Counted from the stretch's first letter, positions 9,639-63,623 are shown. The stretch is 64,000 bases of DNA from a virus (IMGVR_UViG_3300008107_000072:1304-65303); one strand, 5' to 3'. Numbers and translations: made by a program. The notes: generated by a model from the sequence alone, not told the origin.

Positions 9639-10754
9639 ATGGCAGAAAATCCAAATTCCTCAATGTTTGAGGACTTAATAGAATCGGGTGAAATAAACCA
9701 AGCAGCAGAAGGTGCTCTTTCTGGAAATAGCGAAAACTTGGTATCGCAAAATGAGACATCAAGCGAAACGAACCAAGGGCAACAGCAATCTTCAACAGGT
9801 GTAGACTTTGAAACATTATTAGCAGAGAAAACAGGCGGCAAGTTTAAAAGTGTTGATGAAATACTACAACTTGCAGAAAAACCTAATAATCAAGATATTA
9901 ACTTTGCTAATGAGACTAGCAAGAAAGTATTTGAGTATTTGAAGGAAGGTAAGGTTGATGAGTTCTTAAATGTCTACCAGCAACAGCAGAAGCTGACCAG
10001 CTTAGATAAGCTTGATACAGACAACGTGCTGAAGTTGAAGATGAAGTATGAGAACCCTGAACTTACAGATGAGGAGATTGAAGATGAGTTCAACTACAAA
10101 TACGGAATCGAGCAGCCCGATATTGATGAGGATTTAGATACTCCCGAAGAGATTGCAAAAGAGAAGAAAAGACACGAGAGGGAGAAAATCAATATGGAGC
10201 GTCTTAAAAAGAAAGACTTGAAAGAAGCTAAAGACTTCTTGAAAGCAAAGAAAGAGGAGATAGTTCTTCCAGATATTGAAACGCGCCCTACTCAACAGTC
10301 GCAGTCAAATGCGGCTGACGAGGCGGAAGTAAAGGAGTTTCGTGACAAATACTTAGGAACGATTGCTGCAACCATTGATGAGATTGTGGGATTCGGAAAT
10401 AAGTATAAGGACAGCGAACTGGAGTTTGAAACTACTTATGTAATAGACCAGCAAGATAAGGCTAGTCTACAGAATAAGATGGAAAACTTCACTTTGCAAG
10501 ACTACTTTGTTCCGCGCTACATTAACGAGGATGGAAACTTTGACACGGAAGCTATAGCTCACGACTTATATGTCATCGAGAATTTGGATAAAATAATCGA
10601 AGCTCATGTAAGTCAAGCTGTAAACCAAACAAAGTCTATGTTCGTTAAGGGTCTTAAAAATGCCAACTTCCAGGAACAGGTAAGCAGGCGTTTGCCGGAC
10701 GAGCAACAGGCAAGTCAAAATGAGATGGTAGATTATTTCTTTAAAAACACATAA
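9639..10754 (+). CDS. Acidic coiled-coil protein, likely capsid scaffold
   Basis: 371 aa, E/D-rich, immediately before the major capsid gene. Confidence 0.65.
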   Translation: MAENPNSSMFEDLIESGEINQAAEGALSGNSENLVSQNETSSETNQGQQQSSTGVDFETLLAEKTGGKFKSVDEILQLAEKPNNQDINFANETSKKVFEYLKEGKVDEFLNVYQQQQKLTSLDKLDTDNVLKLKMKYENPELTDEEIEDEFNYKYGIEQPDIDEDLDTPEEIAKEKKRHEREKINMERLKKKDLKEAKDFLKAKKEEIVLPDIETRPTQQSQSNAADEAEVKEFRDKYLGTIAATIDEIVGFGNKYKDSELEFETTYVIDQQDKASLQNKMENFTLQDYFVPRYINEDGNFDTEAIAHDLYVIENLDKIIEAHVSQAVNQTKSMFVKGLKNANFQEQVSRRLPDEQQASQNEMVDYFFKNT

Positions 10755-10779
10755 TAATAACAATTAAAAACTAAAAGCA

Positions 10780-12144
10780 ATGGCATACAATTCAGCGGCG
10801 GAGAAACCGTCAGCATTTGTCAATCCCGGCGCAGGTCTAACAAGAGGCATTGTTAGTGACCTGTCTATTCTTAAGCCTCAGTATTATCCTAAGTTCATCA
10901 GCAAGTATGGTGCTCAAAACTACACTATGCTTCTTGAAATGCTTGGATTCAAAGGTCAAGTAAAAAGTAACGTAATCCGTCACTGGGAAGACCTCGGAAA
11001 GCTTCACCAAGCTGTACAGGTTAACGCAAACGTAACTGGTGCAACTAACGGTTCTGCTGTTACTTTCACATTGAAGTCTGGTTCTCACTACGATAGCGGA
11101 ACTAAATCTCCTATCCGTGTAGGTGAAGTAGTTGAAATCGCTTCTACTGGTATTCAAGGTAAAGTAATCAGCGTTGATAAAACAAACGCAGGAGCTCACG
11201 AAGCTACTGTACGTCCTCTTAGCGCTACTCAACAATTTGAGTCTGCTACTCTTGATGGTCGTTTGGACGCTGACGAGTGGATTCTCTTCCGCGGACAAGC
11301 TGCGGTAGGTGAAGCTTCTTCTAAAGGAGATGCTTTGATTCCTCGCGTTGAAGAAGTGTTGAACTACGTTTCTGAAGTTCGCGAAGACTGGAGAGTTACT
11401 GACCGTGCTATGATTGAAGAAATCTGGTTTGGTGAGAACTATTCTTACAAAGGTCTTGAAGATGCTGTAAAGCGTTTCATGAACAACAAAGAGTTTACTC
11501 TTATGTTCGGTAACACTATTACTAACACTAACGCATCTGCTACTTCTAAGAATACAATCGGGCTGTTGCAACAGATTGAAAACCGTGGTACTGGCGTATC
11601 TTATAGCGCTGGAAACCTTGACCGTGCTAAGCTTCACGAAGTAACTCGTGCTCTTGACTTTAACGGAGGTTCTCAAGAGAATCACCTTCTTTCTGACGTG
11701 TTCTTGCGTCAAGAGTTGGATGACGAACTGTTCGACCTTTACGATGCAGGAGCTATCCTTTGGGGTACTGTAGGTGGTAGCAAAGAAGCTGCTGCTATGT
11801 ACGGATTCGGTTCTATCACAATGGATGGTTATACCTTCCACATTAAGAAGTACCTTCCGTTCTCTCCTGAAGCAGTTTACGGTGCTACTCCAACTGACCA
11901 TCAGTACAAGAACTACGGTATCGTTGTTCCTATGTCTCAAGGTCGTGACCCTCAAACTGGAGAGCGTTACAACTCTATCGAAATCACTTACAACAATGTG
12001 AATGGTAAAGACCTTCATATTTGGGAAACTGGTGCTTTCGCTAAGAGTCCTACAAGCGATACAGCTGAACTTAACGTACACCACCTGTGTTACGCAGGTC
12101 TGCGCGTGTTCGGTGCAAACCGCTTCGTACGCATCAGTGGTTAA
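10780..12144 (+). CDS. Major capsid protein
   Basis: 454 aa with strong highly-expressed codon bias, between scaffold and a strong terminator. C-terminal HHLCYAGLRVFGANRF resembles crAss-like MCPs. Confidence 0.85.
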   Translation: MAYNSAAEKPSAFVNPGAGLTRGIVSDLSILKPQYYPKFISKYGAQNYTMLLEMLGFKGQVKSNVIRHWEDLGKLHQAVQVNANVTGATNGSAVTFTLKSGSHYDSGTKSPIRVGEVVEIASTGIQGKVISVDKTNAGAHEATVRPLSATQQFESATLDGRLDADEWILFRGQAAVGEASSKGDALIPRVEEVLNYVSEVREDWRVTDRAMIEEIWFGENYSYKGLEDAVKRFMNNKEFTLMFGNTITNTNASATSKNTIGLLQQIENRGTGVSYSAGNLDRAKLHEVTRALDFNGGSQENHLLSDVFLRQELDDELFDLYDAGAILWGTVGGSKEAAAMYGFGSITMDGYTFHIKKYLPFSPEAVYGATPTDHQYKNYGIVVPMSQGRDPQTGERYNSIEITYNNVNGKDLHIWETGAFAKSPTSDTAELNVHHLCYAGLRVFGANRFVRISG

Positions 12145-12162
12145 TCTTAACTAACCATAGAA

Positions 12163-12194
12163 GAAAGCCCCTCCAAAAGAGGGGTTTTTCTTTT
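12163..12194 (+). terminator. Intrinsic terminator after the MCP gene
   Basis: GAAAGCCCCT-CCAAA-AGAGGGGTTTTTCTTTT. Confidence 0.85.
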
Positions 12195-12238
12195 CGTATA
12201 TGTTGAAGATAATATCGTATCAATACGTATAACTAAAC

Positions 12239-12312
12239 TACTTTTACAGCCTTGGATTTAATCTGTTTTCTATTACCAATTCCCCCCTTTGTTTTTACTT
12301 TGGGGGATTTTT
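12239..12312 (+). ncRNA. Candidate small RNA cassette A (promoter variant, ~60 nt, terminator)
   Basis: TACTTTTA-CAGC parallels TATATTTG-CAGC of the next unit. Ends in a CCCCC/GGGGG hairpin containing GTTTTTAC, then a T run. Confidence 0.35.
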
Positions 12313-12314
12313 CT

Positions 12315-12388
12315 TATATTTGCAGCGTACATTAATAGTTTTTGTTTAGAGTGAATACCCCCCTGTTGTTTTTACAACGGGGTTTTTT
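12315..12388 (+). ncRNA. Candidate small RNA cassette B, antisense to early-gene leaders
   Basis: TATATTTG promoter at 12315-12322, ~62-nt body with CAT...TTTTGTTTAGAGTGA, then terminator CCCC.GTTGT-TTTT-ACAACGGGG-TTTTTT. Confidence 0.5.
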
Positions 12389-12390
12389 AT

Positions 12391-12398
12391 TATATTTG
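12391..12398 (+). promoter_or_regulatory. TAnnTTTG -7 promoter element
   Basis: TATATTTG immediately after a terminator, 15 nt before ATG 12414. Confidence 0.7.
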
Positions 12399-12413
12399 TA
12401 TCAAATAATTACT

Positions 12414-13373
12414 ATGTCAAAAGAAAAACAGATTAAACAAGAAGTCCAACTACCCATTTTGGACGCCATTGACGACACTAAATTTGTCGTTCACAATCCT
12501 CAGATTAAAGAATTTGAGGACGATGATACTGTACAGCTAAAGAAGATGGCTCAGAAAGTGCAGGATAAAGTAAAAGCACAGCAAAGAGAGCCTGAGATGT
12601 ACGTATTCAAGTTGCTCACTCCTTCAGGGCAGAAACCAAAAGCATACGAATCTATAGTAAACGAAATGCCTATATTTGATACAGCTTCTAATAGCGTTCG
12701 TACTATACGCCTTATCAGAGGGGCTTCCTCTATTTGGCTTGATGAGCAAGATGGGTTTACTCCTCAATATATCCAAAGAAACAAGCAGGATATAGTATTT
12801 AATAACGGATTCTTGCGTGTGCCACGTACAAATAGAACTCTTTTAAACTTCCTATTAAATAGCGATGATTACGATAAGAAAGAGAATCGTATGCGTAATA
12901 AGAGGGCAAAGTTTACTCTCGTAAACTCAACGGAGGTAGAAGCTGAGGAATTAAAGAAGGAAGAGAAGCGTCTAAGAGCTATTAACTTTGCTATGAACGC
13001 ATCTGTAGAAGATATGCTTATCCATGCTGAGTTCTTAGGTATCGGCATGACAAACGAGTTCGGGGAGCAAAAGACGATGGCTAAGGTACGTGTAGAATAC
13101 GCTAACAAGGCAGGGAACAATCCTGATGGCTTTATGAATAGCGCTGGTACTACAGCCTCTAAGGTTCAGTACTTCGTTAAGAAGGCTCTTGCCGATTCTC
13201 ATATTGACGTAACTACCAAAAAAGGGTATGCTATTTGGGCAGAAAGTGAAGCTATAATATGTGAGATACCTTTCGGAAAGAAGGCTTACGAATCTATTAG
13301 TGAGTTTGCTATGTCAAAGACAAAAGAAGGTTCTCAATTCTTTGATAGAATAAAAACGCTCACTTCGGCATGA
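12414..13373 (+). CDS. Conserved hypothetical protein downstream of the MCP gene
   Basis: Start moved to ATG 12414 (MSKEK), after the promoter. The ORF-track extension runs through a terminator. Confidence 0.75.
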   Translation: MSKEKQIKQEVQLPILDAIDDTKFVVHNPQIKEFEDDDTVQLKKMAQKVQDKVKAQQREPEMYVFKLLTPSGQKPKAYESIVNEMPIFDTASNSVRTIRLIRGASSIWLDEQDGFTPQYIQRNKQDIVFNNGFLRVPRTNRTLLNFLLNSDDYDKKENRMRNKRAKFTLVNSTEVEAEELKKEEKRLRAINFAMNASVEDMLIHAEFLGIGMTNEFGEQKTMAKVRVEYANKAGNNPDGFMNSAGTTASKVQYFVKKALADSHIDVTTKKGYAIWAESEAIICEIPFGKKAYESISEFAMSKTKEGSQFFDRIKTLTSA

Positions 13374-13392
13374 TAAAATGTAAGTGTTGATA

Positions 13393-13450
13393 TAAATTTG
13401 GTTCTTTTAAGTGTTCATGGTTAAGGCTGCTGTTTTTACAGTGGCCTTTT
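13393..13450 (+). ncRNA. Candidate small RNA cassette C, or simple terminator
   Basis: TAAATTTG promoter match, short body with GTTCATGGTT, then hairpin AAGGCTGCTGT-TTTT-ACAGTGGCCTT and T run. Confidence 0.4.
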
Positions 13451-13455
13451 CTATT

Positions 13456-13463
13456 TATCTTTG
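13456..13463 (+). promoter_or_regulatory. TAnnTTTG promoter, probably giving a leaderless mRNA
   Basis: TATCTTTG-GACT-ATG(13468). Confidence 0.6.
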
Positions 13464-13467
13464 GACT

Positions 13468-14166
13468 ATGGCTACTTCTAATTCAGTATATGAGGAAGTG
13501 CAGTTCCTCTGCAACAAATACCATCATGGGTATATAGCCCCAGATGAGTTTGTCAGCACATTTAATACAGCTCAAAGAATATACATAAATAGGATTCTTG
13601 GTCAGGTTCAAGAGTATCAGAACGGCAGGCCTGTAGCTCGTACTGGTGGTCACATGACTCAAATTGTTGAGGAAAAGTTGGCTCCATTTACAAAGAGGGT
13701 TACACTTAGGTCTTCTAATGAGATAGCTACAGTAAAGACTCAATTTGAAGATTTTCTGAAACTGCTAAGTTTAAATACAGAAGGTGGTCAAAGAGTGCGC
13801 AGGGTTCGTCACGAGCAAATACATAGCGCAATAACTTCTGTTATAGACCCCCCATCAGGTGCAAATCCATATTATTACGAGTACGATACAGGTTTTAGGA
13901 TTTTATCAGGTAGCGACGATGTTGATTCTATGATTATGACGTATGTTAGAAAGCCTGAAAATATTACATGGCCCTATGAGATGGGTTCAGGAAATATCCC
14001 TGTTTATAATGAGAATGGTCCTTTTGGTGGAGCATTGCAAAATCCAGAATGGAGAGACCAAGAGATTAACGAATTGATTTTCATACAGTTAGGTCTTATA
14101 GGAATTAACTTGAAAGATGCGGATTTGATTCGCGTATCGCAAACAGCAAAACAAATAGGTGAATGA
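13468..14166 (+). CDS. Tail ring/adaptor structural protein 1
   Basis: Start at ATG 13468 (MATSN). NK...GYI.P.EF...N.AQ and Y.RKP..ITW.Y motifs resemble crAss-like ring proteins. Confidence 0.7.
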   Translation: MATSNSVYEEVQFLCNKYHHGYIAPDEFVSTFNTAQRIYINRILGQVQEYQNGRPVARTGGHMTQIVEEKLAPFTKRVTLRSSNEIATVKTQFEDFLKLLSLNTEGGQRVRRVRHEQIHSAITSVIDPPSGANPYYYEYDTGFRILSGSDDVDSMIMTYVRKPENITWPYEMGSGNIPVYNENGPFGGALQNPEWRDQEINELIFIQLGLIGINLKDADLIRVSQTAKQIGE

Positions 14167-21712: not shown

Positions 21713-21720
21713 TATATTTG
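21713..21720 (+). promoter_or_regulatory. TAnnTTTG promoter, probably giving a leaderless mRNA
   Basis: TATATTTG-GGCT-ATG(21725). Confidence 0.65.
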
Positions 21721-21724
21721 GGCT

Positions 21725-24700
21725 ATGGCAGAACAGCAATTCCCCTTAAGTCAAGAAGAGTTAAACCAAGAAGAATTTAAGCCTGACGTGGCGAATATAT
21801 TAGGCTACGATAAGGATATGTTCAACACCAAAGACTCTTTTGGAGAACTACCAAAAATAAACCCACAAGAACAGATACAGCTATTTGACGATGTGCCTGT
21901 TGGGAAAGAGCAGAAAAATGCTTTATTAAATCTAAATACAATATCGGAAGAGTCACTAGAAAACGTATCTATTGACGCAGACGGCAACTACGATTTTGCC
22001 ACTAAAGTAGATGACGGTACTGGCATTATGATGAATCAGGAGTTTGAAGACCCTATTCTTGAAAAGAAAAAGAAAGAACTGATTGATGATGTCAATAAAA
22101 GGAAAGACCAGGAAATAGAGACTCTTAAAGTAGATGCAGACCAGAAGGTAGCATCAGGGGAACTTAAAAAAAGCCGCAGAGACAGATACATAGAGAAGAA
22201 TCAGAAGGAGATAGAGAAGAGGTATAAGAAAGAAGCGGAAGATGGGTATAAAAATATATATAAAGAAGCTAATGAAAATAAGGATAAACCCTTAGTTAAA
22301 TTTAAAAATAGATTAAATAAATATAGCGAAGGTATAAATAACTTATGGGGTGTTGTTCAGAAATTACAAGCTGGAGATGTTATATCTCAAGAGGACTATA
22401 TATCAAGCTACTCAGACCCTGAATTTCAGAGTAAATATTTAGAGGTTAAAGGCAGAGGTATTTCAAGTATTAATCAGTTCAAAAGCGAATACGAAAAAGG
22501 TGGGAATGTAAAGGCAGGAGATATTTACTTAGGCTACATTACAGGAAATACATATTTAACAACCGATGCTTTTAAGAAAAGTTCAAGACCTGTATATTTC
22601 GAGGCTACGGTAGACAAAAAAGGCAATAAGACTATAAAGTCTGTTAAGCCTGCATTTGTGCATCCTGTTACCAAGCAAGTTATAGGTGCTTATGTGCCCC
22701 CACAAAGGGGCTCCAGTGATGTTTTAATTAACCCTGCTTATACTGCTATAGCTGGTTATTCTGACCAGATAGCAGGAATTGATAAAGATGTAGAGAATGG
22801 CGTTATAGATGTATCGGAGGGGCAAAGAAGAAAAGATAATGCTAAATCTAGAAGAGCAGAATATCTAAAAAATAATATCGAAGCATTTGATGAGATTATG
22901 GCCAGCGACAAGTACAGCAAAGATGTAAAGATGGCTGTAATTGCTTCAATGTATCCTAATGAATTTAAGAAGAAATATACAGAGCTTTTAGAAAGTGGAG
23001 ATAATAATATAGCAGGTTCTATTATAGGATGGAGCATAGGTCTTCCTGCAAAGGTAATATCTACTGTAACAGGTGCAGCGGCTTCCGGTATAGACAATCT
23101 TGTTCAGGCATATCTTGGCTTGGATGATATTGAGTTCCCTATGGGAACGCTTCCATTGGAGCTTAAGAGAAATCCTGAGATAGCTTTGGAGATGGACAAT
23201 GTAGTAAAATCATCCTATAACAGAAGTTCTAAATATTTAACTAGTATAGAAGGGTTGGCTGAGCTTACTCACGCCGCAAAGGTTAATGTAAATAATAAAA
23301 AAATAGGAGCTGCGATTGCTTCAGCGCAACCATTTGTTGAAGAGTTGGACTCTGTTGTTAGAGAAATAAATAACGATAAGCAGGCTCTTGATATTAATAT
23401 AAAGAATTATTCAAATGACTTACTGGGTATATTTAACAAGAAAGGATATACGACAGCATTGAATAATGCGTATAAGTTGAACAGCGAGCTTATTAATAGC
23501 AAAGATGAAGATATAAGAAACGCTTACAGGTTTATAAGATTAAAGCAGCAGGTATTGAATCATGATGGTTCGGCAGACCAAGCATTATCTAAGTTGTCTA
23601 AGGAGGACATTGAGTTTATCAATACAGTAGGTAAGGATTTGACGCAAAATAGGATTCCATTACTAAATACGGTTGTCGGTAAAATAAATGAAGTAGCGGA
23701 TGCGTTTAATTCGGCGAAAAGTCTATATCCTACAAAAGAAGTACAAGAATATGAAAGAAAGAATAAAGTAAAGTTAGAATCAGATATTAAATCCTTTAAC
23801 GACAAGGTGACTCTTTTTACGGAAAGCGATGTAATGTCATCTGAATCATCTTCTGCGTTAGATATAATTCAAAATCTTGGTATGAAATATGACCAAGAAG
23901 CCGCTGGAAATGAATCATATACCTTTCCTTCGTTAGCAAGAATTGGGCATCAGATGCCGAAGAATTTGCTTGCTATGACGAATCCGGCTACTGGATTAGT
24001 AGTAGGGATGCTTGAAGGAGTTTCGGATATACTTAGAAGCGTTGAGTCTACGGCTAACCTTGTAGGGAATATCCAGTCTTTAGACTTTGATTTGCAAAAA
24101 ACATATATTTCTGCATCGCTGAATGAGTGGAAGCGCAATTTAGAGATTAAAACACCTGATACTGGTAACTACATCTATAACCTATCTAAGCAAATAGGTG
24201 GAGCTCTTCCTCAAATGGCAGCATTTGTAGCTTCGTTTGTGGCTGGCGGTCCTATTGGTGGTGCTTCTTATTTAACAGCTACGATGACTGGGGACAAGAT
24301 GAAAGAAGCTGCTAATGCAGGACTTGACCCTATAGAGCAAATGCTTTATACAGGATTGAGTATAGGTATCGAGTATGGTTCTGAACTAGTAACATCGGAA
24401 ACTGGATTAGCAGGAGTTAGAGGAGGTAAGTCGTTGCTTACTAAAGAGTTGCTTAAAAAGATTATGAATGTACAAACAAGGAAGGAGGCTCTTAAGGAGT
24501 ACGCTAGACTTGTTTGGAATACATCTAAGAACGTGGTTAAAAGCGGAGCGCTTGAATCTTTTGAAGAGCAGGTGTCCGATAAGTCAAACTACATATTACA
24601 GAATCTGTTTAATAACGTATTTGCCACTACATTCCAACCGTCAATGATGGGGCTTAAGGAGTCTCTTGACAACCTGCTTACAATGACGGCTACGGGAGGT

Positions 24701-44115: not shown

Positions 44116-44517
44116 ATGCTTACACTAATACTACCTGTATTTGCAGCTATTATCTGTGCAGTTATTGAGTCTATCCGTATCCGTTTTAGCTACGGTGATG
44201 TAGATAATATCAATAAGCTATGGACAATTACAATCGGAGTGGTATTATTTGTAGTGTGTTTAGCTTTATCTGTTAGCTACTACGATGATATAATGCCTGG
44301 AGATGTCCTTTGCTATATGTTATACTATGTAGGCTGGAGGGGAATGATGTATGATGTTACACTTAATCTACTCAGGGGTTTAGATTTTGATTACGTATCA
44401 AATACAACAAACAGCATTATTGATAGGATGTTTGTGCGTAAAGACACATTCTTTGTACTAAAATTTGTTTATCTACTTATAGTTGTTATATTTGGGTACT
44501 TATGGCAGTTGCGTTAA
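44116..44517 (+). CDS. Membrane protein
   Basis: Three to four hydrophobic segments. Confidence 0.6.
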   Translation: MLTLILPVFAAIICAVIESIRIRFSYGDVDNINKLWTITIGVVLFVVCLALSVSYYDDIMPGDVLCYMLYYVGWRGMMYDVTLNLLRGLDFDYVSNTTNSIIDRMFVRKDTFFVLKFVYLLIVVIFGYLWQLR

Positions 44518-53607: not shown

Positions 53608-53901
53608 TCATGATATTTTTATTTCAGTGCAAAATGATTCAACCTCAAACGATAGCCTAACCCACTCCTCACCATCAGAGTATTCCGTTAAGTATTGAGC
53701 CACAAATCCTCCTGTATCTATTCTAGTCTTCTTCTCTATTGCTTCGGTAATAATCTCCCTGGCTCTGCTCCTGATGGTATAGTTATCAGGGATACCTATG
53801 TCTGCCCACTCCCAGTCTAGCTTATCCATAACCATTCTGACCTTGTCAAAGTCAAATGCGTCCATTATGTCAGCAATAGCCTCGTGCTGTGCGGATGTCA
53901 T
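53608..53901 (-). CDS. Hypothetical protein
   Basis: IMD.FDF.KV...M..L.W.W...TGGF motif. Start moved to ATG 53901. Confidence 0.6.
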   Translation of the reverse strand: MTSAQHEAIADIMDAFDFDKVRMVMDKLDWEWADIGIPDNYTIRSRAREIITEAIEKKTRIDTGGFVAQYLTEYSDGEEWVRLSFEVESFCTEIKIS

Positions 53902-53911
53902 AGCTAATGTT

Positions 53912-54115
53912 TTAGATTGTTGGTATTGATTTAAAATAAAGGTCAACATCAAAGTATTCGTCTGAGTTTTTCTGCATAGCCATCGTCTTTAATTGTTTTG
54001 CGTAGTGCTGAACAACAGACCTTGTAACCCCAAGCTCTCTTGCTATTTCATATTGCTTTTTATTTAGGTTTAGGCATTCGATTATTTTAATTCTCTGTTC
54101 CGATGTTACTGCCAT
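53912..54115 (-). CDS. HTH DNA-binding protein
   Basis: QYEIARELGVTRSVVQHY. Confidence 0.7.
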   Translation of the reverse strand: MAVTSEQRIKIIECLNLNKKQYEIARELGVTRSVVQHYAKQLKTMAMQKNSDEYFDVDLYFKSIPTI

Positions 54116-55402: not shown

Positions 55403-55762
55403 TTAAAATGGCATCTTTGTCTTTGGTGGGTGGTAGGATGTGTTCAGCGTGTCTATGAACTCTCCGTCAGACAAGTGGTTGTATTTGAATAATATCTGCT
55501 CCCATGTTTCATTTCTGTTTGTATTTACTAGAACAGCTTGCACTTCACCTTCACCCCATGAGGAATCCTTGTACTCTTCTGGGTTAGAGAACTCGTTAAT
55601 CAGTTCAAAATCAAACAGTTTGTCTTTGACGTATTGTTCTACGTACTCTTTTGACAGACCTTTTATATAGTCGTCATGTCTCTTGCATAGAGGAACGCTT
55701 AGTTGGTCTCGGATGGCTTCGATGTGCCATACATTGTGGATAAGTTCTAATTTGCCTTGCAT
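55403..55762 (-). CDS. Hypothetical protein
   Basis: 119 aa with a conserved-type leader. Confidence 0.6.
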   Translation of the reverse strand: MQGKLELIHNVWHIEAIRDQLSVPLCKRHDDYIKGLSKEYVEQYVKDKLFDFELINEFSNPEEYKDSSWGEGEVQAVLVNTNRNETWEQILFKYNHLSDGEFIDTLNTSYHPPKTKMPF

Positions 55763-55821
55763 AGTTAAAGTTTTTTAAGTGATTGTATTTAATTTGTAAA
55801 TTCTTAATTTGTAAACATACA

Positions 55822-56118
55822 TTAATCTACTATACCGCCCCCATAATATAAGTTAAATGACTTTGATTTATAATCATCACTTTTTAACCATTCATTATAC
55901 TTGTCTTGCCAATCTTTTGTTTCGAATTTGTAATAAGAGCCATTGCAGTATCTAAGACTATTATTTAACTTATAAAATTTCTCAAATATATCTATCTCTG
56001 TAATACCATCTATTTCTATATTTCTGATTAATTTGGTAGAGGAACTTACATAATATCCACCTGATGGATATTCTTTTGTTTCTCTTACATTGTCATAATA
56101 GTTTAAATTTGCTTTCAT
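55822..56118 (-). CDS. Hypothetical protein
   Basis: 98 aa, AT-rich. Confidence 0.6.
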   Translation of the reverse strand: MKANLNYYDNVRETKEYPSGGYYVSSSTKLIRNIEIDGITEIDIFEKFYKLNNSLRYCNGSYYKFETKDWQDKYNEWLKSDDYKSKSFNLYYGGGIVD

Positions 56119-56148
56119 TTTGTTTTTCTTTTAGTGATTAAAAAAAAT

Positions 56149-56435: not shown

Positions 56436-57725
56436 TTAAAATACCGGGCTGTTGTATTTACCGAAACATAGGTTACACATACCTTCGTGTGCCTCTACAT
56501 CTTTCTCTGTTGCATATCCACCACAAGACCAACAGCATTTATTATCGTCAGGAAATATAGCTATCTTCTGTTCAAGGCAGTAGTCTGCAAACTCCAAACA
56601 CTCATCGAGGGAATCCTCGGGGAGATACTGCTCGTGATACGCTACATCTATCTTACCCATCTCCTCATACTGTGTTAGGTTGCCAGTAGTCTTAGAGTAG
56701 ATACCGTTTCCGCAGTACCTATATCCTGACATTATCAGTACGGCATGGTAGTATATGTCTTCAAGCAGCATTTCCTTTAGGTCTTCATTACACGGCATAT
56801 CTGAATACCAATCTAAGTAGTACTTGTCATTAATGCTACTACCTACTACATCATCTTTGACAGCAGATGGCTTGTTGTCATATCCGCCATACCAACCGTC
56901 GTATGTATCGTAGTAGCCGTAAGGCTTTTTTCCGTATGTGTTTTTAGTAGCGTACATATCAGGCTCAGGTTTGTGCGGATACTTTTTGATAAGGCTTCCG
57001 ATGATACCATATACCATATCCTTGGTATTGTTTACATCATCCACATCTATTATCTCGTCTGTTGAGTGAGGGTTATGGTATCCGCAGCTCATGTTTGCAC
57101 AGCTTATGCCTACCTGTCTTTGTGTTAGCTTACCTACGTCTGTGATACCACCTGGATGGAACTTGTACCCATAGTTAGTAATGATTCCTAGTATGTCATA
57201 TTGAAACTCTTTTGAGGATATGTCAGTACCGGATATGGAGGTTACGAAGTCAGCGTTACCCTTCCTGTCACATTGTAGGATATACATACAATCATCGAAG
57301 AAGGATATGTCAGCAAGTCCACTGCCTACGCACCCTATCTCCTCGTCTCGGAAGAAGCAGGCTTTGATACTAGGGAAGTCTCTCACCGCAGCTAGTGCGA
57401 TATAGATACCTACCTTATCATCACCACCGATACCTGTGAAGTTACGCTTAGACAGGTCGTAGGCATACACGATACCATTCTTCTCGTCATAACCTACTGA
57501 GTAGTAGTCGTCAGGTATGATAGGGTGGACAGTATCTGTATGGGATACGATGCAAGGATAACCTGCGTTTGTCGGCATACCTTTAGTGACATATACATTA
57601 CCATCTACAACGGATACATCTGCTCCGAAGTGGTGTGCGTATTGTACTATGAGGGATGTCATACGTTCGACACTGCCGGAGTATGACTGGGTTTCGAGAA
57701 TGTCTCGGAATAATTGTTCTACCAT
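56436..57725 (-). CDS. Zn metallopeptidase (M28/M20/M42 clan)
   Basis: SHTDTVH, GGDDKVG, DEEIGC, QCDR, GYHNPH ligand motifs. Confidence 0.85.
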   Translation of the reverse strand: MVEQLFRDILETQSYSGSVERMTSLIVQYAHHFGADVSVVDGNVYVTKGMPTNAGYPCIVSHTDTVHPIIPDDYYSVGYDEKNGIVYAYDLSKRNFTGIGGDDKVGIYIALAAVRDFPSIKACFFRDEEIGCVGSGLADISFFDDCMYILQCDRKGNADFVTSISGTDISSKEFQYDILGIITNYGYKFHPGGITDVGKLTQRQVGISCANMSCGYHNPHSTDEIIDVDDVNNTKDMVYGIIGSLIKKYPHKPEPDMYATKNTYGKKPYGYYDTYDGWYGGYDNKPSAVKDDVVGSSINDKYYLDWYSDMPCNEDLKEMLLEDIYYHAVLIMSGYRYCGNGIYSKTTGNLTQYEEMGKIDVAYHEQYLPEDSLDECLEFADYCLEQKIAIFPDDNKCCWSCGGYATEKDVEAHEGMCNLCFGKYNSPVF

Positions 57726-57750: not shown

Positions 57751-59343
57751 TTAGGGCTGCTCTTCTTCTTCGCTTTCGTTCTCTGCCATGAACTTATCGT
57801 ACTCGTCTTGTGTTACCTTGCGACCATCAGGTAGTTCTTGTGCTTCCTTCTTGAGCATCCACTCACCACTTATCTCACATTGTACGCACTTCTCTATCAG
57901 GTAGTAGCAACCATCTACATCAACAGCAACCTCATCTATATCATCCTCGTGAACATATCCGTAGTTCTCTACGTACACAGCGTCATCTATATGGATGGTT
58001 TCAGTGTTATACTCGCAGTAAATGGTATCTTCTACATGGTAGTATCTGTCTCTTGATTCAACGTATGTGATGTTCTCATCATCTTGGTGGTAGTATTGAT
58101 GTCCAACTTCAACGCTAACATCTGAATATATGTAATCTGAATACGCATCGCAGTACACTGCATTATCCTCATCTATCCATTCTTGATGCCATTCAGACCA
58201 TACCTCCCCATCGTGGTCTTCATCCTCATCATCATCGTCCACATCTTCCTCATTATCGAAGAACACCCTTGCGTCTTTTTCGTCATGATTAGGATTGAGT
58301 ATTGTATCGTAGAATATACCAGTTCTCCAACTACTTGCGTGATTATCTATTAACGACGCATCGTACGTCTTTATCATCTCATCTATTACATCCCTTCTCT
58401 TGCCACCATATAGCAAAGCGAATGATACCTCAGAGCGTAGTAGACTTGTCTCGCTGTCTACAGGGAATAGGCTTGAGATGAAAGATGGTCCGTTTGTGCT
58501 ACGAAACTGATAACATCTTAGACCTTGCTCTCTTTGTGACAGACAGTTGGTAGCGTAGAACTTATCACCATCTTTTACGATGAACACTACCGTATCCAGC
58601 CAGGGCATAGAAGACCACGACTCATCAATATGCACCGGAATCTTTACTATTTCAGGGCTAATCTTGCTGCCATTATACATATCGAATGCAAAGAAGTGAC
58701 AGCTCTGTTGAGACTTGTAGTAGAATCCATGACGCACTGCATACTCAATCATCGTAGTACAATGAGCATCTGTTGCATGGTAGATGGTATCCATGTACGT
58801 ATTCTCACCATCGAACCATAGTATTGCTCTTGCTACAATTTTGTAGTCATTGTTCCTAAGTATCAGCATGGAGATGCTATCCTGATTCTGTTCATAGAAC
58901 CTGAAGTATGGTTGACAATAGTCGTAACGCATACAGCTACCCATCAGGTTAGATGATGTACCGAAGTCAACGTAGTTATTATTAAGGTAGTAGTATCCAA
59001 TCATCTCACCACTAGCCACTGAGAAGTTAGGCGACTCAGCACCTTCTCCATGCTCATCACCGTTCATAGATATGTATGACTTAATCTTGTTGACAAAATA
59101 CTCTACATTTTTGTCGCTGTAGTTATCATTACCATTAAGCATTCTGAATAATTTACCCGGCTTCATTAGTTGCAGTCCTTTGTCGGGCCATCTGCCGTTA
59201 ACCTTTTGGACGTTACTACCTTTCTTGTAAAATCCAAACATAGCACCCCTCAGGTGCACGTTTTCGATAGGTAGGTTTGATGTCATAGAAACGAATGGGT
59301 CTGCTGCTTCGTTTAGGATTTCGAATGTTGTTACTGTGTACAT
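57751..59343 (-). CDS. Early protein with a GSCMRY core and acidic/aromatic C-terminal repeats
   Basis: KPGKL, GSCMRY, VARAILW, YMDTIY. Start moved to ATG 59343 by the conserved leader. Confidence 0.7.
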   Translation of the reverse strand: MYTVTTFEILNEAADPFVSMTSNLPIENVHLRGAMFGFYKKGSNVQKVNGRWPDKGLQLMKPGKLFRMLNGNDNYSDKNVEYFVNKIKSYISMNGDEHGEGAESPNFSVASGEMIGYYYLNNNYVDFGTSSNLMGSCMRYDYCQPYFRFYEQNQDSISMLILRNNDYKIVARAILWFDGENTYMDTIYHATDAHCTTMIEYAVRHGFYYKSQQSCHFFAFDMYNGSKISPEIVKIPVHIDESWSSMPWLDTVVFIVKDGDKFYATNCLSQREQGLRCYQFRSTNGPSFISSLFPVDSETSLLRSEVSFALLYGGKRRDVIDEMIKTYDASLIDNHASSWRTGIFYDTILNPNHDEKDARVFFDNEEDVDDDDEDEDHDGEVWSEWHQEWIDEDNAVYCDAYSDYIYSDVSVEVGHQYYHQDDENITYVESRDRYYHVEDTIYCEYNTETIHIDDAVYVENYGYVHEDDIDEVAVDVDGCYYLIEKCVQCEISGEWMLKKEAQELPDGRKVTQDEYDKFMAENESEEEEQP

Positions 59344-59421
59344 GGAGTTTTGTTTAGAGATGAGTAAAGGGGAGGAGTTGTTACACACCTCCCATGATGA
59401 TGTCATTTGAGTGCTAACGCA

Positions 59422-59811
59422 TTATCCAAGAGCTGTATATCCTATGTCAACGAGGTGCTGCTCTGCTTCGCTGTTTGCAAACACCGGAACGAGACGTACA
59501 GCTTTACCTTTCTTGGTAGGTGATGCGTACCATACGACGTTGCCACCTTGCTTGTGTAGGTAGAAGCCATGTCCTGCCTCGTCACCTGAAGCAGTAGAGT
59601 GTACTACTTCGATAAGGCGTGTGTCGTTGTAGTCGGGAACGTTAAGCGTGTCAACAAATTGTGAGAGTGAATCATAGTCTACGTTAAGCACGAAGCCTTG
59701 CTTTGATAGCAGGTCAGGTACAGCTCCGAGAATGATGTGTTGTACATTTCCATTTTGGTCGGCATTGTACATTGCTTTGAGCGTGCTGCGGTCTAATGTT
59801 ACTTGTGACAT
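59422..59811 (-). CDS. Hypothetical early protein (paralog of 59863..60333)
   Basis: GDEAGHGFYL...EAEQHLVDIGYT. Confidence 0.65.
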   Translation of the reverse strand: MSQVTLDRSTLKAMYNADQNGNVQHIILGAVPDLLSKQGFVLNVDYDSLSQFVDTLNVPDYNDTRLIEVVHSTASGDEAGHGFYLHKQGGNVVWYASPTKKGKAVRLVPVFANSEAEQHLVDIGYTALG

Positions 59812-59862
59812 TTTAGAGTGACAGTTTTTATCGTGGTGTCTCCACGTTATCGTTTAATTATT

Positions 59863-60345: not shown

Positions 60346-60777
60346 TTAGTTAAAGTAATATTTCATTATACGTCTGCCAAAGTATGTGCGTAGTGCCTTT
60401 CTTATATCGTGTCCTGTTTCGTACACGTTACGCCCATCAGGATGTTTCTCGTCACGATAGTCTGCCCATATAATATCAGCGATTACCCTTGCCGCAGCTG
60501 GTCTGTATTCGGTAGGGAAGTATTGCCCGGTGATGTACTGAAGCTGTCCCCTTTCATCTATTGTCAGCCTACCTGATGACCTTTGTAGGTATGCCTTTAT
60601 CTTGTCATCAAGGTTGTTTACTCTCAGTCTTGCGTGGTTGAGTAGGTCGTGGAAGTCACCCATGTCCTTAGTTATCTCACGCCTTTCGGAGTTGTATGCT
60701 TTCCAGTCTCCGTAATTGTGGAAGTCAAGTCCAGGTCTCTGAGACACGAACTTGCATAGCAGATTGATTGTACTCAT
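60346..60777 (-). CDS. Hypothetical early protein
   Basis: QRPGLDF.NYG...Y..GQYFPTEYR.AA motif; conserved leader. Confidence 0.7.
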   Translation of the reverse strand: MSTINLLCKFVSQRPGLDFHNYGDWKAYNSERREITKDMGDFHDLLNHARLRVNNLDDKIKAYLQRSSGRLTIDERGQLQYITGQYFPTEYRPAAARVIADIIWADYRDEKHPDGRNVYETGHDIRKALRTYFGRRIMKYYFN

Positions 60778-60797
60778 ACGTTTTGTTTTTAGAGTGA

Positions 60798-61466
60798 TTA
60801 TTCGTAACGGAAATTTTTTATTGTATTACCGTGTTTACTTAGTAAAGACATATCTAAGTTACAGCTGTAATACCCACTTGCGAAATGATACCCAGGAATC
60901 TTGACTGAATGTCCATTTGTAGGGATTAGTTCAATGCCATACCCTTCTATCTTACGGAAGAATTTATCATCAGATAGGTCGAACTCTAATCCTTCAAAGT
61001 CCTGCATACCTATATGCTCAAAGTCAAAGTAAGCGTATGCGTCCATGTTTGTATCGTCATAAAATACAAGAGATAGTCCGCAGTCAAATGTGATACGCTT
61101 ATGTCCGTCATATTCTTCATCATCAACGGCATTTACACTTGTAATACTTACAACGCGACTTTTCTTGTGATATTTAGGGTCAAATATTACGTTGCTTGTA
61201 TCCAAACCTAGCACGTACATTGCGTTCATAATGAAAGCCTCCAGTGTTTCCCTGCTCAGATACATTATAGATTGTCTGACACCTAGCCTACTAGCATGAA
61301 TTACGCATGGCTTGTCAGCATCTTCGCCTACGTAGTTGTTTACGTTCAGCGTAAATAAATCGTCCGAGTTCCTGATAACTGTAACAGTTTTGTTATGGTA
61401 CTTTCTCCTTGCACCTTGCAAGAAATTAGTTTCAAGTCGTTTCGACGTGTCTTTAATCATTGCCAT
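60798..61466 (-). CDS. Hypothetical early protein
   Basis: 222 aa; conserved leader. Confidence 0.65.
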   Translation of the reverse strand: MAMIKDTSKRLETNFLQGARRKYHNKTVTVIRNSDDLFTLNVNNYVGEDADKPCVIHASRLGVRQSIMYLSRETLEAFIMNAMYVLGLDTSNVIFDPKYHKKSRVVSITSVNAVDDEEYDGHKRITFDCGLSLVFYDDTNMDAYAYFDFEHIGMQDFEGLEFDLSDDKFFRKIEGYGIELIPTNGHSVKIPGYHFASGYYSCNLDMSLLSKHGNTIKNFRYE

Positions 61467-61485
61467 AAGTTTTATTTTAGAGTGA

Positions 61486-61722
61486 TTAGGAATGTTTCAT
61501 GCCGGACATTACACCATACCCTTTGCGTTGAGCTAGTCGGTTAATCCTGTTTGCTGTATCAAGTGGTACTACCTGAATGGTGTTACCTGTTTTGTGGTTC
61601 GTTACAGGTATGCAGCCTACTCTTTGCGTATCTGAGCAGTCTATACATTTGTCGAATCCTGCACGAGTGAGCCTGAGTTCAGGCATCTGTTTACCGCAGC
61701 GTTTACATGGGATTGTCTGCAT
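61486..61722 (-). CDS. Small Zn-finger protein
   Basis: CKRC...RL......CIDC (DksA/TraR-like spacing). Confidence 0.65.
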   Translation of the reverse strand: MQTIPCKRCGKQMPELRLTRAGFDKCIDCSDTQRVGCIPVTNHKTGNTIQVVPLDTANRINRLAQRKGYGVMSGMKHS

Positions 61723-62239: not shown

Positions 62240-62431
62240 TTACTGGTTAAGGTTTGGGTTTGCTTGCATACGTTCGAACATTCTGAGACTTGCCTTTCTT
62301 CTGTAATCTTGCACGTCTTCCCCTAATAAATTAAGGAGTTCAACAGTACGTGAGTGAGTACTTTGTACCTTTACGTGTACGTTACGGCGAATAGTACCGT
62401 TAGCTTTTACGGAGAGGATTTTCTGAGCCAT
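62240..62431 (-). CDS. Small early protein
   Basis: Start moved to ATG 62431 (MAQKILS) by the TCACTCT leader; the ORF-track extension runs through the tRNA-like element. Confidence 0.6.
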   Translation of the reverse strand: MAQKILSVKANGTIRRNVHVKVQSTHSRTVELLNLLGEDVQDYRRKASLRMFERMQANPNLNQ

Positions 62432-62459
62432 AGTTTTAATGTTTAAGAGTGAATAAATA

Positions 62460-62517
62460 GGGGACAGCCGGGAATCGAACCCGGCACTACCTTTCGCCTT
62501 CACTTAGTCCCTGTCCC
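62460..62517 (-). ncRNA. 58-nt tRNA-like element (acceptor stem and T arm, no full D/anticodon arms)
   Basis: GGGACAG-N26-CCGGG-TTCGATT-CCCGG-CTGTCCC-C. Confidence 0.7.
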
Positions 62518-62519
62518 TT

Positions 62520-63065
62520 TAAGTATAAAAAAATACAAGTTACCCAAACAGAAACAGCCCTTTGTTTAACATCAGGGCGAGTATAGGCATAGCATAGCTT
62601 ACCTGTTTATGAGTGAGTAAAAAGATTTTTATTTTAGTTTTCTTAAGTTATCTTTTTATTGCGTATTCTCTACAATTCTCAGCTTCACAATTTCATACGT
62701 AACCCTTACCAATTTCCAATGGATAAGGCACTAACAGAATCCGTCCTCTGTTAGCGTGCAGACTTTTCCCCGTTAAACGGTTGGATGCACTGCAACGAAA
62801 GCAATAACATAAATATGTTTAATTGCTGTTAACTTCCGCTATGTCAATGAGCTTGCAAAGTTACATTTTCGACAAACGTAATAAAGCACCGCGCTTTGTT
62901 TGACAATATACAGGACGCACCGCGCGTTTTTTCCTGTAATATTATTACGTCTGTTTTCTATGTTGGTCGTATCCTTTGCTAGATATTTGCCGACCTTTGC
63001 GCGTCCCTAAATTTCCGAAATTTCCGCGCGTCTATTTTCAACGCGCTAAGGGACGCACCGCGTAA
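62520..63065 (-). ncRNA. Candidate large structured non-coding RNA
   Basis: ~550 nt with no ORF of 60 aa or more and many nested inverted repeats; GCACCGCG occurs three times. Strand inferred from context. Confidence 0.5.
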
Positions 63066-63067
63066 AA

Positions 63068-63553
63068 TTACGCGTGAATATCCGCGAATATTTCGCGCGT
63101 TGCGTTGTCTACATTGGCGCACTTTTCGCCGCGATAATAACGCGTAATGATATTTTTAAACTCTGTTGGGGTGATGCCACCGCGTAGCATATTTCGCGCC
63201 GCTTCTGTTTCCTTTACAAAATCCATATATTCGCGAATCGGCAATTTATACACATCATCAACTGAAATATCTTTGCCTGTTTCCGCTGATAAGTTAGCGC
63301 AAAAAATTTCAGACTTTGCGCGCGCGTTTTCTTTAAATAGTAACCGAATTACCGATAAATCCAGGAACGCGTTTTTTATTTCCTTTGCCATGTCTTTCCC
63401 CGCGTCGTTTGTTGCTTTGCGTTTTTCGCGCGCTAGTCTTTGCGCTAGTTGTCGCGCTGTCTCATTCTCTTTCGCGATGTGGTTTAATGAAATTTGTACT
63501 TTTTCGGTTTTTGTAGTTTGCCCAACTTGTGGGGCTGTTGTTGTCTTTTTCAT
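63068..63553 (-). CDS. First early gene, hypothetical protein (CGCG-rich DNA)
   Basis: 161 aa, with a consensus promoter and conserved leader upstream. Confidence 0.7.
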   Translation of the reverse strand: MKKTTTAPQVGQTTKTEKVQISLNHIAKENETARQLAQRLAREKRKATNDAGKDMAKEIKNAFLDLSVIRLLFKENARAKSEIFCANLSAETGKDISVDDVYKLPIREYMDFVKETEAARNMLRGGITPTEFKNIITRYYRGEKCANVDNATREIFADIHA

Positions 63554-63590
63554 TTTGTTTTTGTTTTTGAGTGATTGAATAAATACAATA

Positions 63591-63623
63591 CAAATATACT
63601 ACATATATATACTACATTCCAAA
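63591..63623 (-). promoter_or_regulatory. Consensus Bacteroidota sigma-A promoter driving the early operon
   Basis: Minus strand TTTG(63623-63620)-N21-TATATTTG(63598-63591). Confidence 0.75.

Follow-up and report, generated by a model that had tools for sequence, protein, structure and literature searches.

A conserved promoter-terminator unit after the capsid gene of a freshwater phage is a candidate antisense small RNA against the shared leader of early genes

Most of the base-pairing RNAs known in phages come from temperate phages of Proteobacteria, and their targets are either a single gene on the opposite strand or genes of the host. Here we analyse a short unit at positions 12315-12388 of a phage genome, formed by a promoter, a body and a terminator. 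Its predicted RNA of about 60 nt is complementary to a leader that many early genes of the same phage share. The window, that is, the whole stretch of DNA analysed (64,000 nucleotides), corresponds to bases 1304-65303 of the 65,303-bp virus record IMGVR_UViG_3300008107_000072, which has 38% G+C. Coordinates follow the window numbering unless marked "genome".

Among the described phage antisense RNAs, the c4 RNA of P1/P7 and the CI RNA of P4 act in trans at several short sites in the phage's own transcripts and block expression. Both are cut from the operon they control, and both belong to temperate-phage immunity. The unit resembles them in having several complementary sites in transcripts of its own phage. 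However, it has its own promoter and terminator, it lies in the block of virion genes, and its predicted targets are 43-51 kb away on the other strand.

Other small phage antisense RNAs, such as P22 sar, lambda OOP and aQ, block translation or destabilise phage mRNA; they are cis-encoded and have a single target (PMC12197685). The present unit has no conserved gene opposite, and it would address many distant leaders at 55.7-63.6 kb. Lambda PreS and VP882 VpdS are small RNAs (sRNAs) that act in trans in lytic growth, depend on Hfq and have host targets (dnaN; host sRNAs) (PMC12197685; bioRxiv 10.1101/2024.10.31.621285). In contrast, the unit is predicted to target early leaders of its own phage, in a phylum that has no obvious Hfq. 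A review of phage sRNAs lists, in its section 2, cis-antisense and host-directed sRNAs and no shared-leader antisense (PMC12197685). Likewise, our search of open-access papers and bioRxiv found no description of a shared-leader antisense system of this kind.

A functional parallel is found in T4. Its RegA protein acts on ~30 mRNAs, RegB cuts at GGAG in early leaders, and many early start regions are shut down (PMC3014915). In T4, as would be the case here, one phage product addresses a shared feature of many early start regions. Nevertheless, RegA and RegB are proteins, whereas the present product would be a base-pairing RNA, and there is no homology.

In bacteria, the comparison is with GibS of Bacteroides thetaiotaomicron, which at 145 nt is longer than the predicted RNA of the unit. 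GibS and other intergenic trans sRNAs of this species are AT-rich and have their own start site and intrinsic terminator, as the unit does (PMC7366714). More precisely, GibS pairs through a long unstructured 5' seed with the start regions of several mRNAs, needs no Hfq in vitro, and is one validated Bacteroidota trans sRNA that matches the architecture of the unit (PMC7366714). The features of such sRNAs that can be read from DNA are present at the locus: an own promoter of the TAnnTTTG kind, a 3' terminator, and a single-stranded seed complementary to start regions. GibS is bacterial, has metabolic targets and shows no sequence likeness to the unit. The latter is phage-encoded, encodes ~60 nt and mirrors the repeated leader of its own phage.

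The phage DNA is present in freshwater and lake metagenomes. Its + strand genes run from the left end to 46.6 kb, and its minus-strand genes from 63.55 to 46.7 kb. The + block holds the virion genes, with the major capsid protein (phrog_13704, Pfam SU10_MCP) at 10780-12144 and structural proteins downstream, and it also encodes a 3510-aa protein with an LPD23 domain. The minus block encodes a BT4734-like primase. Its promoter-proximal end (55-63.6 kb) encodes ten small or orphan proteins, of which PHROGs names one, a peptidase at 56436-57725. We call these genes early by their position and gene order only. The intergenic promoter-like boxes on both strands are of the Bacteroidota TAnnTTTG kind, which in flavobacteria lies at -12 to -5 relative to the start site (PMC9723704). 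Start regions in Bacteroidota are A-rich and lack Shine-Dalgarno sequences (PMC6847099). Known phage records gave no match to the phage, either by DNA or by capsid protein. The capsid protein, used to look for a host, found no relative in bacterial genomes. The early protein 60798-61466, used as bait in IMG/VR, found no relatives.

The intergenic region 12145-12413 shows the order T1, variable spacer, box A, block A, T2, P1, body, T3, P2 and the ATG at 12414, where T stands for terminators and P for promoters (Table 1). The unit studied runs from P1 to T3. The original prediction described it as a promoter-body-terminator cassette insulated by two other terminators and the next promoter, and all these statements on the sequence were correct. 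The promoter box TATATTTG occurs 13 times, against 5.9 expected, and at least 13 times in 2/100 shuffles. Five terminator-like sites were found in 11000-14000, compared with 1.7 +/- 1.2 in shuffled sequences. T2, a weaker hairpin, was seen by eye and then folded; the terminator scan did not flag it. In the predicted fold of the RNA 12329-12388 (-13.8 kcal/mol), 32 unpaired bases precede a 9-bp hairpin and U6, and 3/200 shuffles fold equally well. There is no conserved reading frame on either strand of the unit. On the + strand, the open reading frames (ORFs) over it have 21-27 aa, begin with TTG and run through the hairpins. On the minus strand, no TAnnTTTG box lies upstream and no T run follows either hairpin. 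Rfam 15 gave 0 matches in the whole window; in 12100-12450 the best sub-threshold scores were 13-23 bits, against gathering thresholds of 47-114.

The unit is conserved among close relatives. Searches with the capsid protein found 8 IMG/VR and 23 metagenome loci with 89-98% protein identity; whole related records share 65-91% DNA identity. Sequence reaching past the capsid gene is available in 21 loci, which correspond to 16 distinct sequences. The cassette of L034/L035 equals that of L029, which leaves 15 distinct cassettes (the window, 2 IMG/VR and 12 metagenome records). All 15 keep the promoter, the hairpin and the core complementary to the leader (anti-leader core). The pairwise identity is 0.97 in the P1 box, 0.81 in the core, 0.66 in the hairpin, 0.57 in the spacer after T1, 0.41 in the 5' part of the body and 0.36 in the linker. 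Every version folds as a free 5' end followed by a terminator, with three different stem sequences, each one followed by a U run. In a joint fold of the 15 versions, RNAalifold called 5 pairs only, the three kinds of stem being misaligned, and hence the versions were folded singly. On the other hand, the minus-strand mini-ORF is not conserved. It has 19 aa in this phage, a 1-nt difference makes it 65 aa long in G004, in L031/L037 it has 3 codons, and L032/L036/L002 lack it. The constraint therefore falls on the + strand promoter, the + strand terminator and the anti-leader core, and not on a peptide.

The minus-strand early genes at 55.7-63.6 kb share the leader motif WWTCACTnnAAACAAAAC, located 19-23 nt before the ATG. 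Read on the minus strand, the body of the unit is an instance of this motif. Four early-gene starts had been quoted as look-alikes of the body (59338-59359, 62429-62455, 60775-60797 and 61464-61485). All of them are present, and each one ends in the ATG of a minus-strand ORF. That the body is the reverse complement of the early leader is supported by a leader matrix, by duplex energies and by perfect complements. The matrix has 22 columns and comes from 22 leaders of four relatives, with the cassette and the window sequence excluded. Position 12357 (-) scores 22.2 bits and is rank 2 of ~130,000 positions on both strands of the 65,303-bp genome. All the other matches above 15 bits are real leaders of minus-strand genes. 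In the cassette, TCACT and the ATG downstream are 22 nt apart; real leaders have 19-23 nt. All the matches to TCACTCTAAA with at most one mismatch are on the minus strand (6/6), and five directly precede start codons at 59.8-63.6 kb.

We also counted TCAC at 12-32 nt before the ATG in five genomes. It was present in 8/31, 8/32, 9/41, 8/31 and 5/22 minus-strand genes, and in 3/46, 2/35, 3/37, 2/45 and 2/37 + strand genes; two genes are counted twice, and one G004 count is the cassette itself. In the five genomes, the motif of the first early gene sits inside the transcript started by an ordinary box, so the motif is a leader and not a promoter. The strict leader pattern WWTCACTNNAAA has 5, 4, 1, 3 and 2 matches in the five genomes of the window's clade. 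These matches, of which two are the cassettes themselves, all lie on the strand opposite to the capsid gene. Five more distant records have 0, 0, 2, 0 and 1. The four with 0, 0, 2 and 0 are sister-clade records without the unit. By this comparison, the leader tag and its complement appear to occur together in one clade, although the contrast is small.

Pairing energies were estimated with RNAduplex against 77 start regions (-35 to +20). The top five partners include four early genes, those starting at 62431, 61466, 63553 and 59340 (Table 1). The early gene starting at 60777 is rank 6 (-17.1 kcal/mol), behind a non-early minus-strand gene, 53608-53949 (-17.3 kcal/mol). The mean duplex energy is -15.1 kcal/mol for 12 early start regions, -10.3 for other minus-strand genes and -9.2 for + strand genes; part of this preference for early leaders is built in by construction. 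On each of the four summary measures, all 60 shuffled seeds fall short. The genome has 13 non-self sites that are perfectly complementary over 10 nt or more, and 9 of these, with 10-12 nt, are on the minus strand at 59.3-63.6 kb. With the length lowered to 9 nt or more, perfect complements fall in 8/77 start regions of G000 (6 on the minus strand), 6/67 of G001 (5), 12/78 of G002 (12), 6/75 of G004 (5) and 3/59 of G005 (3). Across the genome, the leader at 62.4 kb pairs best outside the unit itself (-22.5 kcal/mol). The original prediction had the RNA pairing with both the leader and the AUG of early mRNAs. Its first half agrees with the sequence, with the conserved seed facing the TCACT...AAACAAAA part of the leader. 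The second half is not supported: no part of the body is less conserved than the 5' part, which would have to cover the AUG.

The seed and the leaders change together to some extent. The leaders are mostly TCACTC in G000, G004 and G005 and TCACTT in G001 and G002, and each cassette matches its own genome. The cassette of clade III has an extra AAAT, which extends the match to TATTTATTCACT of the first early leader of that clade to 12 nt. A 5 x 5 table of seeds against start regions favours the cognate cells once double-centred, with a diagonal of -0.85, 0.10, -2.12, -1.27 and -1.46. The pattern consists of two blocks ({G000, G004} and {G001, G002}), equivalent to about one event. Related phages had been put forward as the place to find such units covarying with early leaders. 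They do carry the unit, in the 15 versions; the covariation is visible at the level of clades only. As a comparison of sequences, it gives weak support to the pairing with these targets.

From the observed anatomy, conservation, complementarity and absence of a conserved ORF, we propose the following mechanism. The host RNA polymerase with its main sigma factor would start ~5 nt after the TATATTTG box (12327-12329). Transcription would stop at the T3 hairpin and U run, at ~12388, giving an RNA of ~60 nt with ~30 unpaired bases at its 5' end. The core UUUUUGUUUAGAGUGAA in this free end would pair in trans with the leader motif AUUCACUCUAAACAAAA. About 8 minus-strand early genes, at a distance of 43-51 kb, carry this motif 19-23 nt ahead of their start codon. 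The proposed partners are the seed part AGAGUGAA and the leader part UUCACUCU. This pairing would occlude the start region and block the loading of ribosomes. It would then lower the translation, and probably the stability, of many early mRNAs together. That the RNA is produced, the time of its production, and that its pairing represses, instead of activating or doing nothing, are what we infer. We consider the chances evenly balanced that the unit encodes an antisense sRNA of ~60 nt that acts in trans on the translation start regions of early genes.

Several results weigh against this reading. The number of TCACTCTAAA matches with at most one mismatch is not above chance (6 against 7.9 expected; at least 6 in 80/100 shuffles). 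The contrast between clades in WWTCACTNNAAA is small, with 1 match in G002 and 2 in G004, one of these being the cassette. The energies are modest and not unique, since several non-leader windows of the genome reach about -20 kcal/mol. The AUG-covering 5' part of the body is not conserved. In the table of seeds and start regions, swaps within blocks score better, and the identity assignment is not the best permutation. Moreover, gene conversion, concerted evolution or common descent would yield the same pattern of covariation. Contigs of four freshwater RNA libraries, from four studies, cover 10700-12064, that is, the capsid gene only. One of them is 99-100% identical to the phage and the others 88-99%, which corresponds to relatives. 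Such contigs cannot show small RNAs and cannot prove transcription, and the absence of cover over 12065-13400 is uninformative on an RNA of ~60 nt. The late expression claimed by the original prediction is unsupported, as the first early gene has a TATATTTG box too, at 63598 (-), and the box therefore tells nothing about timing. Gene dosage after replication might make the RNA accumulate late, but this is speculation.

More distant phages also count against it. In a sister group with genomes of similar size and a capsid protein 46-50% identical, 38 IMG/VR loci (35 distinct) were compared. After the capsid gene, 33/35 have a terminator, a promoter and an ATG only, with neither the P1-T3 unit nor that of block A; the unit is then dispensable for such phages. 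L082 and L083 belong to a clade further away, whose capsid protein is ~60% identical to the query used for the sister group. They have a single unit of promoter, 38-nt body and terminator ~100-230 nt after the capsid stop. The body is unrelated. Against 86 start regions of the 67-kb L082 record (G006), its best energy was -21.4 kcal/mol, which 6/40 shuffles equal. With no significant complement in the start regions, we rejected it as an anti-leader unit.

Block A, upstream of the unit, is the most conserved non-coding stretch at the locus (0.93). Its reverse complement has a 13-nt perfect match at 12425-12437, within codons 4-9 of the next gene, and this is the sole match of such length genome-wide. 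The pairing with these codons is present in 15/15 versions, and it includes three compensated variant pairs: TTTAATCTGTTTT/AAAACAGATTAAA, TTTACCTGTTTT/AAAACAGGTAAA and TTGACTCTGTTTT/AAAACAAGTCAA. The cognate energies are -17.3, -16.6 and -16.9 kcal/mol, compared with -6.2 to -14.5 for non-cognate combinations. No permutation equals the cognate mean (0/5000), and shuffled block A gives -8.3 +/- 0.6. Selection thus acts at this locus on RNA-RNA pairing with the 5' ends of mRNAs, which raises the prior for the anti-leader unit. Since T2 follows block A and the upstream box of clade III is a full TAnnTTTG, block A and T2 look like a second RNA of ~60 nt. Its action might be in trans, or be a cis contact within read-through transcripts. 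A comparison of block A with all start regions and the whole genome found no convincing target besides 12425-12437, and the exact block A pattern in IMG/VR returned only four records already known.

Directly after T1, at 12197-12205, is TATATGTTG, whose TGTTGA is invariant in 15/15 versions. The sister phages carry their only TATATTTG promoter in this position. TATATGTTG may be a promoter in degenerate or variant form, from which a longer block A RNA would start. A third unit, at genome 638-740 (window ~-666 to -564), consists of TATATTTG, a body of 28 nt and a terminator, and the first + strand gene has its promoter directly behind it. Its architecture is kept in the 4/4 relatives examined (G001, G002, G004 and G005), and its body is poorly conserved. 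No convincing target was found for it among all start regions and the whole genome.

Table 1. Positions of the features of the capsid-downstream region and of the early-gene leaders.
Feature	Position	Strand	Observations
T1, intrinsic terminator after capsid gene	12163-12196 (hairpin 12163-12189)	+	Scan: 11 pairs, T-rich tail; relatives keep T1 with altered stems
Box A, -7-like TACTTTTA	12239-12246	+	Clade III: TATTTTTG, a full TAnnTTTG; pairwise identity 0.73; putative promoter
Block A, candidate second small-RNA seed	12250-12282	+	22/26 columns invariant; complements codons 4-9 of next gene
T2, hairpin and U run, end of block A unit	12283-12312	+	Fold; kept in relatives
P1, -7 box TATATTTG	12315-12322	+	TA[TC]ATTTG in 15/15 versions
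Body	12323-12358	+	GTACATTAATAGTTTTTGTTTAGAGTGAATA at 12328-12358; predicted RNA start 12327-12329
Single-stranded 5' region of candidate RNA	12327-12358	+	Unpaired in minimum-energy fold; reverse complement of early leader and ATG
Anti-leader core TTTTTGTTTAGAGTGAA	12341-12357	+	Also quoted as TTTTTGTnTnnAGTGAA; pairwise identity 0.81
T3, GC hairpin and U6	12359-12388 (hairpin 12361-12382)	+	Scan: 9 pairs, 5 G-C; T run on + strand only
P2, promoter of next gene, TATATTTG	12391-12398	+	Invariant (8/8 columns) in 15/15 versions; 2 nt after T3 tail
Downstream gene, 319 aa, phrog_34748/16922	12414-13373	+	Function not assigned by PHROG; 12422-12440 pairs with block A
Leader, gene 55403-55762	55763-55785	-	Leader matrix; -13.3 kcal/mol
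Leader, gene 55822-56118	56119-56140	-	Leader matrix, 18.3-20.6 bits
Leader, 529-aa gene 57751-59340	59341-59362	-	CTCTAAACAAAA, then ATGTAC as in cassette; -17.5 kcal/mol; 12-nt perfect complement
Leader, gene 59422-59811	59812-59822	-	GTCACTCTAAA, then ATG; -14.8 kcal/mol
Leader, gene 60346-60777	60778-60800	-	Leader matrix; -17.1 kcal/mol
Leader, gene 60798-61466	61467-61488	-	Leader matrix; -18.4 kcal/mol
Leader, gene 62240-62431	62432-62455	-	-22.5 kcal/mol; 10-nt perfect complement; best predicted partner; directly after tRNA-like element
Leader, first early gene (63068-63553)	63554-63577	-	24.8 bits; -17.8 kcal/mol; downstream of TATATTTG 63598-63591

Other observations concern the leaders and the boxes. 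The best predicted partner follows a tRNA-like end at 62455-62520 (-), with an acceptor-like stem and a GGTTCGATTCC T-arm. This end closes a non-coding stretch of ~560 nt (62503-63067), in which two TAnnTTTG boxes lie at 62863 and 62880 (-). No call was made there by ARAGORN, which also found no tRNA or transfer-messenger RNA in the window, and the best Rfam match of this end is mascRNA-menRNA (E 0.81). T-arms of the GGTTCGATTCC type are also present in G002, G004 and G005, with the early leader beginning directly after. This end may be a processing signal. With regard to the boxes, a TATATTTG ends 4 nt before the ATG of the 3510-aa gene (21713-21727). The predicted start site is the A of the ATG, which suggests a leaderless mRNA. 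A similar box is found at 44487-44504, 7 nt before gene 44502.

The cassette could also be an evolutionary leftover, an inverted early segment trapped between duplicated terminator-promoter units, possibly transcribed and with no regulatory role. T2 with P1, and T3 with P2, resemble tandem copies of the single terminator-promoter unit of the sister phages, which manage without the cassette. Read backwards, it agrees with the 529-aa early gene of G004 in the leader and in the first codons (ATG TAC GC), and the unit probably originated as an inverted copy of an early "hairpin-leader-ATG" segment. The site also takes insertions. In L025 (2611-3096; the same in L043), a 161-aa AT-rich ORF is inserted between T2 and P1, and both small units are intact. 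This ORF is HNH-endonuclease-like by eye, from its sequence and without a family search. The site downstream of the capsid gene is thus an insertion hot spot. However, a dead copy is expected to decay like its flanks, and the core keeps an identity of 0.81 against 0.36-0.57 in the flanking non-coding DNA. In addition, the box and the terminator are present in 15/15 versions, and the stems that have been replaced still pair. We therefore see a leftover without function as unlikely, even if its origin is of this type.

Another explanation accepts a real small RNA and places its main targets elsewhere, in host mRNAs or other phage RNAs. Its likeness to the leaders would then be a shared A-rich style of start regions. 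Bacteroidota start regions are A-rich and free of Shine-Dalgarno sequences (PMC6847099), and the U-rich half of the seed would suit many of them. The non-leader windows at about -20 kcal/mol go in the same direction, as do block A and the genome 638-740 unit, whose targets are other or unassigned. Nevertheless, the AGAGUGAA half of the seed matches the specific TCACTCT part of the leader, beyond a run of A, and the cassette is rank 2 in the genome by the leader matrix. Nothing positive points to host targets. We give this explanation a small chance.

The unit might instead be a local transcription device in cis, such as an insulator, an attenuator or a unit like lambda PR'-tR', whose transcript ends early unless polymerase is carried on into the next genes by an antiterminator, or its core might be an upstream element of P2. 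In the lambda late leader, a promoter and an immediate terminator stand ahead of the virion genes. The unit shares this anatomy, and the anatomy only, with a short terminated promoter-proximal transcript ahead of late genes. A third unit of this type before the first + strand gene, in 4/4 relatives examined, and a core ~45-60 nt upstream of the P2 start are consistent with such a device. However, the downstream gene has its own promoter and would not need read-through, as the full and invariant P2 (15/15) lies 2 nt past the terminator. An upstream element would also leave the invariant AGTGAA and the early-leader match unexplained. The chance of a cis device seems to us equally small.

Finally, a function of the minus strand, either as the leader of a translated mini-ORF (the alternative offered by the original prediction) or as an early-type start signal for RNA antisense to the 3' end of the capsid gene, is very improbable: an ATG 22 nt after TCACT, as in real leaders (at 17-26 nt in 12/15 versions), and a T1 that also scores as a minus-strand terminator would agree with it, but the ORF is conserved neither in length (19, 65, 3 or 0 codons) nor in sequence, the ATG of several versions arises from the TTTGCAT of the + strand promoter context, an upstream TAnnTTTG box is absent, the U runs of both hairpins are on the + strand only, and the motif of the first early gene is a leader within an ordinary-box transcript in five genomes.

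The antisense sRNA against early leaders is thus the reading that we prefer. Overall, the original observation is confirmed, and its interpretation is partly supported and, on sequence and conservation, the best available. A broader proposal, which we hold as tentative and somewhat doubtful, is that the locus encodes a tandem pair of RNA regulators of ~60 nt. The anti-leader RNA, born by inverted duplication of a target leader, would switch off a temporal class of ~8 early genes. The block A RNA would be tuned to the first codons of the neighbouring gene. With the same reserve, the pair might be the RNA counterpart of T4 RegA/RegB, in a phylum without known phage riboregulation.

Block A offers a covariation-backed RNA-target pair that is directly testable. 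The units are short and modular, and they could serve as simple parts for gene control in Bacteroidota, should the proposal hold. If the antisense reading is true, recognition in trans of a leader tag shared by early genes of the same phage would provide a novel means of timing the lytic programme. It would also be the first such case in phages of Bacteroidota, whose mRNAs lack Shine-Dalgarno sequences.

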